NCBI RefSeq assembly: GCF_003019035.1 | Contig: NZ_CP027447.1 | Source: Escherichia coli | Lineage (GTDB): Bacteria > Pseudomonadota > Gammaproteobacteria > Enterobacterales > Enterobacteriaceae | Length of the DNA: 64,000 nt | Direction: 5' to 3' (one strand) | Shown: positions 4,958-57,954 of the stretch, in pieces | How the letters are laid out: each line of letters starts with the position of its first letter | Position numbering within the stretch: position 1 is the stretch's first letter | Made by a program: the position numbers and the translations under genes | Notes under the pieces: model-generated | The model's database searches: none | Told to the model about the DNA's origin: nothing | Seen by the model: the letters and a program-made list of their open reading frames with translations, nothing else

Positions 4958-5041
4958 GTTATTGTCGGATGCGTCGCCTGGCGCATCCGACACCATGCGC
5001 CGATGCCTGATGCGACGTTTACCGCGTCTTATTATGCCTAC
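4934..5041. repeat. REP-like palindrome (gtcggatgcg...cgcatccgac) plus canonical REP (gatgcctgatgcgacg...cgtcttat..gcctac), BIME-like
   Basis: Inverted repeats read directly; first unit overlaps the prpE stop codon. Confidence 0.75.
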
Positions 5042-5111
5042 CCACTGTTTTTACACCGATAATTTTTCCCCCACCTTTTTGCACTCATTCATATAAAAAA
5101 TATATTTCCCC

Positions 5112-5127
5112 ACGAAAACGATTGCTT
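5112..5127 (+). promoter_or_regulatory. PurR-box-like 16-mer (acgaaaacgattgctt) upstream of codB
   Basis: About 12/16 match to the PUR box consensus ACGCAAACGTTTGCGT; codBA is purine/nitrogen regulated in E. coli. Confidence 0.45.
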
Positions 5128-5193
5128 TTTATCTTCAGATGAATAGAATGCGGCGGATTTTTTGGGTTTCAAACAGCAAAAAGGGGGAATTTC

Positions 5194-6453
5194 GTGTCGC
5201 AAGATAACAACTTTAGCCAGGGGCCAGTCCCGCAGTCGGCGCGGAAAGGGGTGTTGGCATTGACGTTCGTCATGCTGGGATTAACCTTCTTTTCCGCCAG
5301 TATGTGGACCGGCGGCACTCTCGGAACCGGTCTTAGCTATCATGATTTCTTCCTCGCAGTCCTCATCGGTAATCTTCTCCTCGGTATTTACACTTCATTT
5401 CTTGGTTACATTGGCGCAAAAACCGGCCTGACCACTCATCTTCTTGCTCGCTTCTCTTTTGGTGTTAAAGGCTCATGGCTGCCTTCACTGCTACTGGGCG
5501 GAACTCAGGTTGGCTGGTTTGGCGTTGGCGTGGCGATGTTTGCTATTCCGGTGGGCAAGGCAACCGGGCTGGATATTAATTTGCTGATTGCCGTTTCCGG
5601 TTTACTGATGACCGTCACCGTCTTCTTTGGCATTTCGGCGCTGACGGTTCTTTCGGTGATTGCAGTTCCGGCTATCGCCTGTCTTGGCGGTTATTCCGTG
5701 TGGCTGGCCGTTAACGGCATGGGCGGCCTGGACGCCTTAAAAGCGGTCGTTCCCGCACAACCGTTAGATTTCAATGTTGCACTGGCGCTGGTTGTGGGGT
5801 CATTTATCAGCGCGGGCACGCTCACCGCTGACTTTGTCCGCTTTGGTCGCAATGCCAAACTGGCGGTGCTGGTGGCGATGGTGGCCTTTTTCCTCGGCAA
5901 CTCGTTGATGTTTATTTTCGGTGCAGCGGGCGCTGCGGCACTGGGGATGGCGGATATCTCTGATGTGATGATTGCTCAGGGCCTGCTGCTGCCTGCGATT
6001 GTGGTGCTGGGGCTGAATATCTGGACCACCAACGATAACGCGCTCTATGCGTCGGGTTTAGGTTTCGCCAACATTACCGGGATGTCGAGCAAAACCCTTT
6101 CGGTAATCAACGGTATTATCGGTACGGTCTGCGCATTATGGCTGTATAACAATTTTGTCGGCTGGCTGACCTTCCTTTCGGCAGCTATTCCTCCGGTAGG
6201 GGGCGTGATCATCGCTGACTATCTGATGAACCGTCGCCGCTATGAGCACTTTGCGACCACGCGTATGATGAGTGTCAATTGGGTGGCGATTCTGGCTGTC
6301 GCGCTGGGGATTGCCGCAGGCCACTGGTTACCGGGAATTGTTCCGGTCAACGCGGTATTAGGTGGCGCGCTGAGCTATCTGATCCTTAACCCGATTTTGA
6401 ATCGTAAAACGACAGCAGCAATGACGCATGTGGAGGCTAACAGTGTCGAATAA
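5194..6453 (+). CDS. codB: cytosine permease (NCS1 family), GTG start
   Basis: 419-aa polytopic membrane ORF; overlaps codA start. Confidence 0.93.
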
Positions 6454-7726
6454 CGCTTTACAAACAATTATTAACGCCCGGTTACCCGGCAAAGAGGGGC
6501 TGTGGCAGATTCATCTTCACGACGGAAAAATCAGCGCCATTGATGTGCAATCCGGGGTGATGCCCATAACTGAAAACAGCCTGGATGCCGAACAAGGTTT
6601 AGTTATACCACCGTTTGTGGAGCCGCATATTCACCTGGACACCACGCAAACCGCCGGACAACCGAACTGGAATCAGTCCGGCACGCTGTTTGAAGGCATT
6701 GAACGCTGGGCCGAGCGCAAAGCGTTATTAACCCATGACGATGTGAAACAACGCGCCTGGCAAACGCTGAAATGGCAGATTGCCAACGGCATTCAGCATG
6801 TGCGTACCCATGTCGATGTCTCCGACGCAACGCTGACTGCGTTGAAAGCGATGCTGGAAGTGAAACAGGAAGTTGCGCCGTGGATTGATCTGCAAATCGT
6901 CGCCTTCCCGCAGGAAGGGATTTTGTCGTATCCCAACGGTGAAGCGTTGCTGGAAGAGGCGTTACGCTTAGGGGCAGACGTAGTGGGGGCGATTCCGCAT
7001 TTTGAATTTACCCGTGAATATGGCGTGGAGTCGCTGCATAAAACCTTCGCCCTGGCGCAAAAATACGACCGTCTCATCGATGTTCACTGTGATGAGATTG
7101 ATGACGAACAGTCGCGCTTTGTTGAAACCGTTGCTGCCCTGGCGCACCGTGAAGGCATGGGCGCGCGAGTCACCGCCAGCCACACTACGGCAATGCACTC
7201 CTATAACGGGGCGTATACCTCGCGCCTGTTCCGCTTGCTGAAAATGTCCGGTATTAACTTTGTCGCCAACCCGCTGGTCAATATCCATCTGCAAGGACGT
7301 TTCGATACCTATCCAAAACGTCGCGGCATCACGCGCGTTAAAGAGATGCTGGAGTCCGGCATTAACGTCTGCTTTGGTCACGATGATGTCTTCGATCCGT
7401 GGTATCCACTGGGAACGGCGAATATGCTGCAAGTGCTGCATATGGGGCTGCATGTTTGCCAGCTGATGGGCTACGGGCAGATTAACGATGGCCTGAATTT
7501 AATCACCCACCACAGTGCCAGGACGTTGAATTTGCAGGATTACGGCATTGCCGCCGGAAACAGCGCCAACCTGATTATCCTGCCGGCTGAAAATGGGTTT
7601 GACGCGCTGCGCCGTCAGGTTCCGGTGCGCTATTCGGTACGTGGCGGTAAGGTGATTGCCAGCACCCAACCAGCACAAACCACCGTATATCTGGAGCAGC
7701 CAGAAGCCATCGATTACAAACGGTAA
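6443..7726 (+). CDS. codA: cytosine deaminase
   Basis: Amidohydrolase ORF; start set at GTG 6443 (VSNNALQ...) rather than the track's upstream ATG 6428; HxH metal motif PHIHLD present. Confidence 0.93.
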
Positions 7727-54332: not shown

Positions 54333-55010
54333 ATGAGTGCGTCGTTGGCGATCCTGACCATCGGCATTGTACCTATGCAGGAAGTTTTGCCGCTCCTGAC
54401 AGAATACATTGACGAAGATAATATTTCCCATCATAGCCTGCTGGGGAAGTTAAGCCGCGAAGAAGTGATGGCGGAGTACGCGCCAGAAGCAGGCGAAGAC
54501 ACAATTCTCACATTATTAAATGACAACCAGCTGGCCCATGTTTCGCGTCGTAAAGTGGAACGAGACCTGCAAGGTGTGGTTGAAGTGCTCGATAATCAGG
54601 GTTACGACGTCATTATATTAATGAGTACAGCAAACATTAGTAGTATGACCGCGCGTAATACGATCTTTCTTGAGCCGTCGCGGATATTGCCACCGCTGGT
54701 TTCCTCTATTGTTGAAGATCATCAGGTGGGGGTTATCGTTCCGGTTGAGGAGTTGCTGACCGTTCAGGCACAAAAATGGCAAATTTTGCAGAAACCGCCA
54801 GTATTTTCATTGGGTAACCCCATTCATGATTCGGAACAAAAAATCATTGATGCCGGGAAAGAATTACTGGCAAAAGGTGCAGATGTCATCATGCTGGATT
54901 GTTTGGGATTTAACCAGCGTCATCGCGATTTACTGCAAAAACAGCTCGATGTTCCTGTCTTGCTCTCTAACGTATTGATTGCACGGCTGGCTGCGGAATT
55001 ACTGATGTAA
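54333..55010 (+). CDS. aroM: AroM protein (unknown function)
   Basis: 225-aa ORF downstream of aroL-yaiA. Confidence 0.9.
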
Positions 55011-55081
55011 TTTTGCGTGACAGCCAGCGCCTCTGGCCCCTATAGTGAAGTAGATGTTCAACTACCAGACAGGGCCAGTTT

Positions 55082-55366
55082 ATGCTTCAAAGTAATGAGT
55101 ACTTTTCCGGCAAAGTGAAATCGATCGGCTTTTCCAGCAGCAGCACTGGTCGCGCCAGCGTGGGTGTTATGGTTGAAGGTGAATACACCTTCAGCACCGC
55201 TGAGCCTGAAGAGATGACGATAATCAGTGGCGCGCTGAATGTGTTACTGCCTGACGCGACCGACTGGCAAGTGTATGAAGCCGGTTCGGTGTTTAATGTT
55301 CCCGGTCACAGCGAGTTTCATCTGCAAGTTGCCGAACCCACCTCTTATCTGTGCCGCTATCTGTAA
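55082..55366 (+). CDS. ppnP: pyrimidine/purine nucleoside phosphorylase (cupin)
   Basis: 94-aa ORF beginning [17 protein letters not shown]; also known as yaiE. Confidence 0.9.
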
Positions 55367-55573
55367 TTCCTCGCCTTCCCCTTGAACGGGAGGGCATTTT
55401 TCTGAAATGTCCTCTCTTTAACCCATAATAATATTTCCTTTGCTGGGATTTTTTCGATTTCCGATATATTCATAATTCATCAAGGTTGATATAAATATCA
55501 GCGAAGATCTCCAGATATTGTTGCGGAACTGGCGACGATAAAAGATAAATCAGATGATGAATGGTGGCGTGCA

Positions 55574-55852
55574 TTGCTGCAAAGTCGCAATGATCATTTG
55601 CGCCAAACGGCATTGCGCAACGCACATACCCCGGTGTTGTTAACGACATTGACTGAGTCTCAGGATCGGTCGCTGGCTATTAATAATCCACAGCTGGCTG
55701 CCGATGTGAAAACGGTGTGGCTAAAAGAGGAGCCATCATTACTCTTATTTGTCGATCAACCCGCTCTTTCGCAGTTACGGGATTTAGTGAAAATCGGGGC
55801 AACGCGGAAAATTCGCAGTGAAGCGCGTCACCGGCTTGAGGAAAAACAATGA
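55574..55852 (+). CDS. ykiA-like hypothetical ORF with no ATG start; possible gene remnant
   Basis: 92-codon ORF from TTG; frame is open for about 25 further codons upstream without any ATG. Confidence 0.35.
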   Translation: MLQSRNDHLRQTALRNAHTPVLLTTLTESQDRSLAINNPQLAADVKTVWLKEEPSLLLFVDQPALSQLRDLVKIGATRKIRSEARHRLEEKQ

Positions 55853-56009
55853 CACAACGCCCCTGGAGCAAGTTACAGCGTAAAACGCATAATATTGCTG
55901 CGCAAAATATTATTGCCCGCCGTAGCGAATAATTATATGCCTGGTGTGGCTTCGTACGCCGGATAAGACGCGGCAGGCGTCGCATCCGGCATTAAAGGTA
56001 AATCAGCAA

Positions 56010-56921
56010 TTAACGTTGTGCTTCGCCACCTAATCCTTCAATCAGGTTTTGAATTAACGCTGCCAGTTCACCAGTCATCAGGATGAAATCGGCATCAAAA
56101 CGCTGGGCGAAATCTTCACGGTCGATATCTTCGTTTTGATCGCGCAGCTCGTCGCAGAACTTCAGACGCTTGAGCGAACCATCGTCGCACATCACAAACT
56201 GAATGCGTTGCTGCCAGTCGAGCGCCAGTTTAGTCACCACTTTTCCGGCTTCGATGTGGTTGGTGATCTCTTCGCTGGTCAGATCTTGTTTCTTCGCGCG
56301 GATCACGCCACCATCTTCCAGCAGCGATTTCAGCTCGGCTTCATCAAGCAACTGGAAGCCCTGTGCCGCACTACCGGAGCGAACCCATTCGGTCAGCGTC
56401 AGTTCAATCGGGTTTTCCATGCTCAATGGTACAACCGGTAACGACCCCAGGCTTTTACGCAGTAATGCCAGCGTATCTTCCGCTTTTTTGGCACTGGCGC
56501 AGTCCACCATAATCAAACCGTTAACCGTGTCGATCCACATCATTGTCTGGCTAAAACGGCTGAAAGCACGCGGCAGCAGAGAGTGCAGCACTTCGTCTTT
56601 CAGCGAATCTTTTTCGGTTTTCTTCAGCTTACGCGCCTGTTCCGCTTCCAGTTTGGCGATTTTCGCTTCCAGCGCCTGTTTAATCACCGGAGACGGGAGG
56701 ATTTTTTCTTCTTTGCGCGCGCAGATAACAATTTGACCATTGGCAACGTGCGTTAACGCATCGCTGTGCGATCCCATCGGAGGAACCCAGCCCATCTTCG
56801 CCATGTCCTGGCTGCCGCATGGGGTAAATGCCATCGAGGCTAGCTGTTTTTCCATCTCTTCTGCACGCAGCGAAATCTCGCGGCTAAGACGGTAAACCAT
56901 TAAATTTTTGAACCACAGCAT
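56010..56921 (-). CDS. rdgC: recombination-associated nucleoid protein RdgC
   Basis: 303 aa from [16 protein letters not shown]...; start set at internal ATG. Confidence 0.95.
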
Positions 56922-57045
56922 GATAATTTCCACGGCCTTGTCGTTAAATTTAGCGGGCATGATAACGAATTGTCGGCGGGCTTGCATTGCCAATCCGGTT
57001 GTCCGTCTCTACGCTATTGATATTGAAAAAAATAAGGAGAGTACC

Positions 57046-57954
57046 GTGCGTATAGGTATCGATTTAGGCGGCACCAAAACTGAAGTGATTGCACTGGGCG
57101 ATGCAGGGGAGCAGTTGTACCGCCATCGTCTGCCCACGCCGCGTGATGATTACCGGCAGACTATTGAAACGATCGCCACGTTGGTTGATATGGCGGAGCA
57201 GGCGACAGGGCAGCGCGGAACGGTAGGTATGGGCATTCCTGGCTCAATTTCGCCTTACACCGGCGTGGTGAAGAATGCCAATTCAACCTGGCTCAACGGT
57301 CAGCCATTCGATAAAGACTTAAGCGCGAGGTTGCAGCGGGAAGTGCGGCTGGCAAATGACGCCAACTGTCTGGCGGTTTCAGAAGCAGTAGATGGCGCGG
57401 CAGCGGGAGCGCAGACGGTATTTGCCGTGATTATCGGCACGGGATGCGGCGCGGGCGTGGCATTCAATGGGCGGGCGCATATCGGCGGCAATGGCACGGC
57501 AGGCGAGTGGGGGCACAATCCGCTACCGTGGATGGACGAAGACGAACTGCGTTATCGCGAGGAAGTCCCTTGTTATTGCGGTAAACAAGGTTGTATTGAA
57601 ACCTTTATTTCGGGCACGGGATTCGCGACGGATTATCGTCGTTTGAGCGGACATGCGCTGAAAGGCAGTGAAATTATCCGCCTGGTTGAAGAAAGCGATC
57701 CGGTAGCGGAACTGGCATTGCGTCGCTACGAGCTGCGGCTGGCAAAATCGCTGGCACATGTCGTGAATATTCTCGATCCGGATGTGATTGTCCTGGGGGG
57801 CGGGATGAGCAATGTCGACCGTTTATATCAAACGGTTCCGCAGTTGATTAAACAATTTGTCTTCGGCGGCGAATGTGAAACGCCTGTGCGTAAGGCGAAG
57901 CACGGTGATTCCAGCGGCGTACGCGGCGCTGCGTGGTTATGGCCACAAGAGTAA
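57046..57954 (+). CDS. mak: fructokinase/manno(fructo)kinase (ROK family), GTG start
   Basis: 302 aa from [14 protein letters not shown]; SD ggaga upstream of GTG. Confidence 0.93.

Follow-up and report, generated by a model that had tools for sequence, protein, structure and literature searches.

Gene content of the ppnP-rdgC interval

The window, a stretch of 64,000 nucleotides from the Escherichia coli contig NZ_CP027447.1, is 100% identical to E. coli strain FDAARGOS_497. Within the region read (54600 to 57200), a mechanical listing of open reading frames contained a 92-residue ORF initiated by TTG (55574 to 55852, plus strand). This ORF is located between ppnP (55082 to 55366, plus strand) and the convergent rdgC gene (56010 to 56921, minus strand), the neighbors named by the first-pass annotation, both of which are intact according to their ORFs and to annotation, for ppnP that of the identical FDAARGOS_497 record. 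The 92-residue ORF is wholly contained in a larger remnant (55514 to 55852, plus strand; 112 codons and a stop codon), which PGAP annotates in FDAARGOS_497 (positions 1645 to 1983 of locus L001) as a pseudogene, 'DUF2773 domain-containing protein; incomplete; missing N-terminus'. The following 27 codons (55849 to 55932, plus strand) are annotated by PGAP as a 27-residue hypothetical protein, known elsewhere as YkiD. In K-12 MG1655, the orthologue of the remnant, ykiA (b0392), is listed as a pseudogene, and the small ORF bears the name ykiD (b4732). The pseudogene status of ykiA is already on record in the reference annotation.

Derivatives of K-12 have the same arrangement as the window. K-12 ykiA is likewise located between ppnP and ykiD/rdgC, displays the deletion junction GAAGATCTCCAGATATTGTTGCGGAACTGG, overlaps ykiD through the sequence ATGA, and is approximately 96% identical to the window at the nucleotide level. 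The window allele differs by a 3-nt in-frame deletion (HTPVLL versus HTPALLL in K-12) and by 8 amino-acid substitutions across the 105 shared codons. For the small ORF, K-12 YkiD reads ...AALKII... and the window YkiD reads ...AAQNII....

Downstream from ppnP, a consensus scan detected a terminator-like element (55373 to 55402, plus strand), as a pattern match only. Its hairpin (55373 to 55395) has an 8-bp stem with 6 GC pairs and is followed by a T-run (ATTTTTCTGA). The presence of this element suggests that the remnant is probably not simply read through from ppnP. The spacer between ykiD and rdgC contains a REP-type palindromic element (55950 to 55995, no strand assigned) detected as a partial, sub-threshold match to the Rfam family naRNA4 (55958 to 55993). 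An Rfam scan of positions 55000 to 56200 returned only sub-threshold REP-related matches (naRNA4, REP-derived), at about 55957 to 56004. A copy related to this element lies downstream from mak in the O157 locus. Two ORFs of the minus strand (55680 to 55985 and 55470 to 55649), antisense to the remnant, had no match in a Pfam search and were treated as spurious.

The frame of the remnant is open and devoid of ATG codons

The frame containing TTG 55574 is open from 55490 to 55849 (120 sense codons) and is bounded by TGA codons at 55487 to 55489 and 55850 to 55852. The first-pass annotation had correctly described an open frame, although its approximate values, 117 codons following a TGA near 55500, have to be replaced by those given above. 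Translation of the frame bore out the additional claim that it contains no ATG and that TTG 55574 is the first canonical start. ATG is absent from all 120 codons, neither ATG nor GTG precedes TTG 55574, and the only in-frame near-cognate codons upstream from this position are ATT 55517, CTG 55529, and ATA 55538.

For the 3' end of the 16S rRNA, pairing with the 17 nt upstream from the start codon was predicted to amount to −4.9 kcal/mol for TTG 55574, owing to a GGTGG motif located 6 nt upstream and pairing with an internal mismatch. The corresponding values for the ATG of ykiD and for aroM were −6.2 and −7.7 kcal/mol, and in this part of the window −4.0 kcal/mol or better is reached at approximately 20% of positions taken arbitrarily. 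Thus, the pairing ahead of TTG 55574 is weak to moderate. It had been stated that no obvious Shine-Dalgarno sequence precedes the start, which is a fair description, although the GGTGG motif implies that such a signal is not strictly missing.

The remnant matches the entire Pfam profile PF10971 (DUF2773; positions 1 to 81 of 81) with an E-value of 1.8e-37 and a score of 127.8 bits, the cut-off being 25. The window retains only the last 113 codons or so of this type of gene, as compared to 746 to 819 residues for the intact members of the DUF2773/YdbD family.

An intact gene occupies the same slot in other Escherichia strains

In O157:H7, the slot between ppnP and rdgC is occupied by an intact, ATG-initiated gene of 2280 nt encoding a protein of 759 residues (WP_120795310.1, designated 'ydbD' in the Sakai record). 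Strain WL297 harbors an intact allele in this slot (93% nucleotide identity to O157:H7), and Escherichia sp. E4930 also has an intact gene at exactly this place (73% amino acid identity). Hence, the search for a longer ATG-initiated orthologue, which had been proposed as a check in the first-pass annotation, has a positive outcome. The occurrence of intact genes in the same slot of O157:H7, WL297, and E4930 indicates that the long gene represents the ancestral state of this locus in Escherichia.

The GC content is 42% for the ancestral long gene (positions 4995 to 7274 of the O157:H7 locus, L005) and 37% for its upstream region (window 55367 to 55513), against 52% for the whole window. The AT-richness of the long gene would be compatible with an H-NS-silenced gene acquired horizontally by an Escherichia ancestor.

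Comparison of window positions 55000 to 56100 with the O157 locus by BLASTN returned three collinear blocks. The first block (window 55000 to 55508, 97% identity) aligns to 1 nt short of the O157 ATG. The second block (55514 to 55880, 97% identity) runs from about codon 647 of the long gene, whose final 342 nt it covers, into the initial 32 nt of a 149-residue SF0329-family gene, which follows the long gene in O157:H7 with an ATGA overlap. The third block (55871 to 56100, 98% identity) extends from the last 55 nt or so of the SF0329 gene onward. The window therefore has homology to just a portion of the longer gene that relatives carry intact in the orthologous slot, and the three collinear blocks indicate that it differs from the intact state by two deletions. 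The O157:H7 gene and the remnant share their slot, their upstream region, and the last 109 codons of the long gene, which are 97% identical at the DNA level. The O157:H7 gene differs by the presence of an ATG, a signal peptide, a β-helix, and approximately 410 further solenoid residues absent from the window. The two loci also differ downstream since O157:H7 has a nearly full-length SF0329 gene where the window has ykiD.

A compound deletion of 1.94 kb removed most of the long gene

The disabling lesion is a 1.94-kb compound deletion, which eliminated 85% of the coding sequence, start codon and signal peptide included. The region retained on the left side (55396 to 55508, plus strand), which comprises the promoter and 5' UTR of the ancestral long gene, is collinear with L005 (97% identity). 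It extends to 1 nt before the former ATG, i.e. to position 4993 of L005 where the intact coding sequence starts at 4995. This region abuts a chimeric scar, TCTCCAGATATTGTTGCG (window 55508 to 55525, plus strand; 18 nt), which is an exact copy of an internal segment of the long gene (L005 6063 to 6080). The junction sequence is GAAGAT|CTCCA|GATATTGTTGCGGAACTGG.

The internal segment encodes LSPDIVA (residues 356 to 362). The scrap present at the junction corresponds to codons 357 to 362 approximately (SPDIVA) and is joined to codon 651 and the following codons. Thus, the ORF of the window consists of the last 109 codons of the intact gene preceded by a 6-codon internal scrap, and the annotated remnant corresponds to residues 359 to 362 (approximate limits) and 651 to 759 of the ancestral protein. 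All intact alleles examined encode LSPDIV(A/V)SLS at positions 357 to 365 and (D/E)SDIFAEL at positions 645 to 652. The remnant reads SPDIVAEL (SPDIVA|ELA), a chimera found in none of these intact alleles. This observation, together with the presence of 17 to 18 nt originating from L005 6063 to 6080, rules out a single simple deletion.

The simplest account of the left deletion would be a compound event. In a first break, the end of the 5' UTR, immediately ahead of the ATG, would have become linked to L005 near position 6063. A second joint would have formed between imperfect 12-nt repeats, GATATT(G/T)TTGCG, present at L005 6069 to 6080 (GATATTGTTGCG) and 6933 to 6944 (GATATTTTTGCG). Whatever its steps, the deletion, of approximately 1.94 kb, eliminated the gene from the start codon through codon 650, sparing only the scrap of six codons (357 to 362), and thereby fused the promoter and 5' UTR of the gene to codons 651 to 759.

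The first-pass annotation had suggested a decaying ykiA-like gene. The existence of intact orthologues and the pseudogene annotation support this proposal, with the qualification that decay involved a 1.94-kb deletion, since the alignment rules out loss of the start codon by a point mutation. The frame lacks an ATG because the genuine ATG was deleted. It appears open over 120 codons because the former 5' UTR, which accounts for the 'extra' open codons (55490 to 55513), happens to contain no in-frame stop codon after TGA 55487.

ykiD derives from an SF0329-family gene

Intact SF0329 genes, as found in WL297 and Shigella, consist of 456 nt, encode 151 residues, and end in ...RRKTHNIAALKIIARRSE. 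In the window and in K-12, 372 nt (124 codons) are missing between 10-nt direct repeats, AGTTAC(A/G)GCG. The two copies of the repeat are present in O157:H7 at L005 7293 to 7302 (AGTTACAGCG) and 7665 to 7674 (AGTTACGGCG). The window matches L005 up to position 7302 and then from position 7665 onward (97 to 98% identity), with a single surviving copy of the repeat, AGTTACAGCG, as the scar of the deletion (55871 to 55880, plus strand). The in-frame 372-nt deletion generates MTQRPWSKLQ-RKTHNIAA...RRSE, in which the first 10 to 11 and the last 16 to 17 residues of the SF0329 protein are joined to form the 27-residue YkiD. This comparison identifies ykiD as an in-frame deletion derivative of a 151-residue SF0329-family gene.

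The 149-residue protein of O157 matches the two SF0329 HMMs, PF25753 (81.4 bits versus a threshold of 27) and NF049912 (93.7 bits versus 60). In comparison to this family, ykiD has kept the start codon, the ribosome binding site, and the corresponding terminal codons, and differs by the lack of the 124 internal codons, its 27-residue product no longer matching the family HMMs; no family was matched by YkiD in Pfam or NCBIfam. The ATG of ykiD overlaps the TGA of the remnant (ATGA), and the Shine-Dalgarno sequence of ykiD, GAGGA, is located within the last 15 nt of the remnant. YkiD varies among strains, the observed changes including S7I, R11H, T13K, LK to QN (in this window), and forms of 26 residues. 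The K-12 protein has been detected by epitope tagging in rich medium (VanOrsdel et al.; PMC6001520), in an article whose text is silent about any derivation from a pseudogene or remnant (PMC6001520).

Escherichia sp. E4930 has retained the intact 759-residue gene, and its SF0329 gene has been reduced by a different in-frame deletion (L020, about 6276 to 6341). The leftover is a 21-codon ORF, MRLRRKTHNIAALKIIIRRSE, which overlaps the upstream stop codon as ATGA and retains the same C-terminal peptide as YkiD, RRKTHNIAALKII-RRSE. The conservation of this peptide following two independent in-frame reductions could be due to chance (1 in 9) or could be a hint of selection.

The SF0329 allele of O157:H7 contains an extra A (L005 7690 to 7720; GCTAAAAAATT versus GCTAAAAATT), which changes the family-typical C-terminus, ...ALKIIARRSE*, into ...ALKNYCPP*. 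Even the 'intact' O157:H7 haplotype is thus slightly damaged in the C-terminus of SF0329.

We also considered the possibility that the long gene and the SF0329 gene form an obligate pair, such as a toxin and its immunity protein or a defence system. The family distribution and the gene neighborhoods did not support this possibility. Members of the SF0329 family number more than 500 and occur in different phyla, the family being found in Leminorella among unrelated small genes, and two DUF2773 homologues (P0005 and P0008) have no SF0329 neighbor. A PADLOC search performed with the long protein and the SF0329 protein returned no hits.

The ancestral protein is predicted to be an exported solenoid

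When 1.84 billion representative proteins were scanned exhaustively with HMMER, 169 relatives of the long protein were retrieved at E ≤ 1e-3, including 35 at E ≤ 1e-30; approximately 40 relatives were full-length (746 to 819 residues). A word-indexed protein search identified only 6 relatives. K-12 encodes a full-length paralogue, YdbD (b1407, 768 residues), which displays 28% identity over 747 residues (E = 3e-84). YdbD has the architecture of ancestral YkiA and contains DUF2773. It differs by its locus, pdxI-ydbD-ynbA (K-12, L011 5145 to 8227), where the gene is intact in K-12 and has no SF0329 gene downstream. YdbD is described only as methylglyoxal-induced or possibly participating in methylglyoxal detoxification, and as sigma-E-induced (PMC2731931, PMC13313352).

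An AlphaFold2 model of the ancestral protein, based on an alignment of 41 sequences, had a mean pLDDT of 91.6. The model comprises an N-terminal hydrophobic helix, MNRINILVICMVLFFMTGNACA, consistent with the Sec-type signal peptide predicted from the sequence, a bactofilin-like β-helix (residues 65 to 176, approximately), and an unbroken array of short helices extending from about residue 240 to residue 759 (approximately 520 residues) and resembling LRV/HEAT α-solenoids. The family profile matched the LRV protein of Azotobacter vinelandii (PDB 1lrv) with an E-value of 5.7e-13, and both proteins have short paired helices arranged as a solenoid, according to the model for YkiA. In contrast, 1lrv is a cytoplasmic protein of 244 residues with an Fe-S domain, and ancestral YkiA would combine a signal peptide, an N-terminal β-helix, and a far more extended repeat array. 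The ancestral protein displayed no catalytic signature. Based on this predicted architecture, ancestral YkiA was most likely exported and acted as a scaffold or as a binding protein.

In the model, the portion of the protein encoded by the window corresponds to the last six or so helices of the solenoid. Devoid of the signal peptide and of the rest of the array, this fragment would be unlikely to fold or to reach its compartment. Translation from TTG 55574 would generate a cytoplasmic 92-residue solenoid tail lacking the signal peptide.

PF10971 (window 55610 to 55849; residues 679 to 759) coincides in the model with the tail of the continuous solenoid, and no structural boundary is visible at its start. 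The DUF2773 'domain' thus appears to have been delimited from the truncated ORF of K-12 ykiA and probably does not correspond to a structural domain.

Several decay states coexist in the E. coli population

Positions 55370 to 56010 of the window were compared by megablast to 5,426 complete E. coli genomes. Some match was obtained for 5,424 of these genomes, and about 4,500 (approximately 83%) matched at least 80% of the query, i.e. the remnant and ykiD. The 5' 1.94 kb of the long gene was present in 444 to 447 of the 5,426 genomes, mostly of O157:H7, O55:H7, and O145, and the middle of the SF0329 gene was present in 921 genomes. A third haplotype, identified in O104:H4, NIST0056, and BS-04, has the same left junction as the window, GAAGATCTCCAG, and has lost the rest of the ykiA remnant. 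In this haplotype (L007 1300 to 1924; L004; L008), the SF0329 gene is full-length but disabled by a frameshift (+1 C) near codon 5. Subtraction of the counts suggests that approximately 470 genomes may carry it. Because the left junction is shared, the comparison argues for stepwise decay, in which the large deletion probably occurred once and preceded the later, divergent lesions. In addition, IS1 is inserted in the intact long gene of certain genomes (hits H55 and H60) and replaces the entire ykiA/ykiD slot in strain VL7S7 (L009 1748 to 2445). These insertions and replacements are further independent routes of loss at the locus.

The promoter of the long gene has been retained

In K-12, the ppnP-ykiA intergenic fragment drives expression of a lacZ fusion and is activated by BglJ-RcsB (PMC3950696). 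The transcription start site of ykiA has been mapped by 5'-RACE, and the binding site, located 79 bp upstream, has been verified by mutagenesis (PMC3950696). In the window, the consensus scan identified one sigma-70-like match (55402 to 55429) in the retained upstream region. Because the 97% identity to O157 extends up to the old ATG, the promoter assigned to ykiA is that of the ancestral gene, still firing into the fragment. Transcription of the fragment continues from this retained promoter, which is activated by BglJ-RcsB in K-12, and its 3' end still carries the ribosome binding site of the downstream gene, cut to the 27 codons of ykiD by the 372-nt in-frame deletion. The likeliest present role of the resulting RNA would be that of a passive leader for ykiD.

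Both loci of the DUF2773 paralogues of K-12 are connected to the BglJ-RcsB regulon, through the ykiA promoter in one case and through ynbA, located directly downstream from ydbD, in the other (PMC3950696).

Status of the remnant

Taken together, the homology to the intact gene, the deletion junctions, and the population distribution identify the ORF as a fragment of a larger gene, and we infer that it does not encode a functional protein. Very probably, the ORF (pseudogene ykiA) is a leftover of the 3' part of an ancestral Escherichia gene and has no function. A counterpoint to this interpretation is that the remnant persists across most E. coli phylogroups and has not been purged. Low-level translation of the fragment may occur, given the active promoter and the GGTGG motif located 6 nt before TTG 55574.

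To evaluate selective constraint, alleles were compared by the method of Nei and Gojobori over the 105 shared codons. The two intact alleles of O157 and WL297 gave a dN/dS ratio of 0.20 (16 synonymous and 12 non-synonymous differences). For comparisons among remnant alleles, or between remnant alleles and other alleles, the ratio was mostly in the range of 0.4 to 1.8, with dN up to 0.069, these values being based on only 2 to 16 substitutions per class per pair. Eight remnant alleles had 35 segregating sites in 318 nt, and the adjacent 3' end of ppnP was 98 to 100% identical. The constraint acting on the remnant looks relaxed in comparison to the intact alleles; the direction is clear, but the numbers are small and not decisive.

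These data bear on the possibility that the fragment has been converted into a functional small protein with a new cytoplasmic role, consisting of 92 residues if translated from TTG 55574 or longer if translated from a near-cognate start. The frame is open in all nine remnant alleles examined, the sole change in length being a 3-nt in-frame indel, TTG 55574 is preceded by moderate anti-Shine-Dalgarno pairing, an active and regulated promoter lies upstream (PMC3950696), and the fragment is kept in approximately 83% of the E. coli genomes. However, stop codons are created by 5.1% of the possible substitutions, so that about 1.8 such events were expected and the probability of observing none is approximately 0.17. 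The open frame of the remnants therefore provides no evidence of selection. In addition, dN/dS is close to 1 among remnants versus 0.20 for intact alleles, and amino acid replacements are common and non-conservative. The remnant also lacks the signal peptide and 85% of what was an unbroken repeat solenoid, and strains of the O104:H4 type have deleted the fragment entirely. No report of a translated product of the ykiA remnant was found in literature searches. We consider a functional small protein to be very improbable.

Retention of the fragment as a non-coding 5' leader, comprising the promoter-proximal region and the ribosome binding site and selected only through expression of ykiD, would account for the location of the GAGGA sequence (−6.2 kcal/mol) and of the ATG of ykiD within or overlapping the 3' end of the fragment. 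It would also account for the detection of the YkiD protein in K-12 (PMC6001520) and for the position of the only mapped promoter, upstream from the fragment. However, the ribosome binding site would require only the last 20 nt or so of the fragment, the O104:H4-type haplotype dispenses with the fragment, and YkiD is itself a scrap generated by a deletion and varies among strains. We consider this possibility to be very improbable as well. Finally, a chance ORF or an assembly artefact devoid of gene ancestry, which the absence of ATG and the weak start signals might have suggested, is practically eliminated by the PF10971 match (E = 1.8e-37), by the alignment of the DNA (97% identity) with the 3' portion of an intact gene at the same locus, and by the occurrence of the same sequence in about 4,500 independent complete genomes.

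A broader scenario would be the conversion of a gene into a microprotein by deletion, the BglJ-RcsB-activated promoter and the ykiA leader having been kept for the sake of YkiD or of the 92-residue YkiA tail, which would have acquired a new function. The independent reduction of SF0329 in E4930 with retention of RRKTHNIAALKII-RRSE and the persistence of an open-frame remnant across most E. coli phylogroups both point in this direction; we nevertheless regard this scenario as improbable.

With the interpretation of the ORF as pseudogene ykiA, this sequence is a recognised pseudogene that should be neither counted as protein-coding nor mined as a gene with an unusual start codon, and its general biological significance is small. 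The present analysis adds the exact anatomy of the lesions, the range of decay states found in the population, and the description of ykiD as a deletion remnant. The origin of YkiD as a scrap of an SF0329 protein calls for caution in treating ykiD as a dedicated small-protein gene. The locus offers a natural decay series, with intact, half-deleted, fully deleted, and IS1-replaced states, which could be used to study the persistence of pseudogenes in E. coli.
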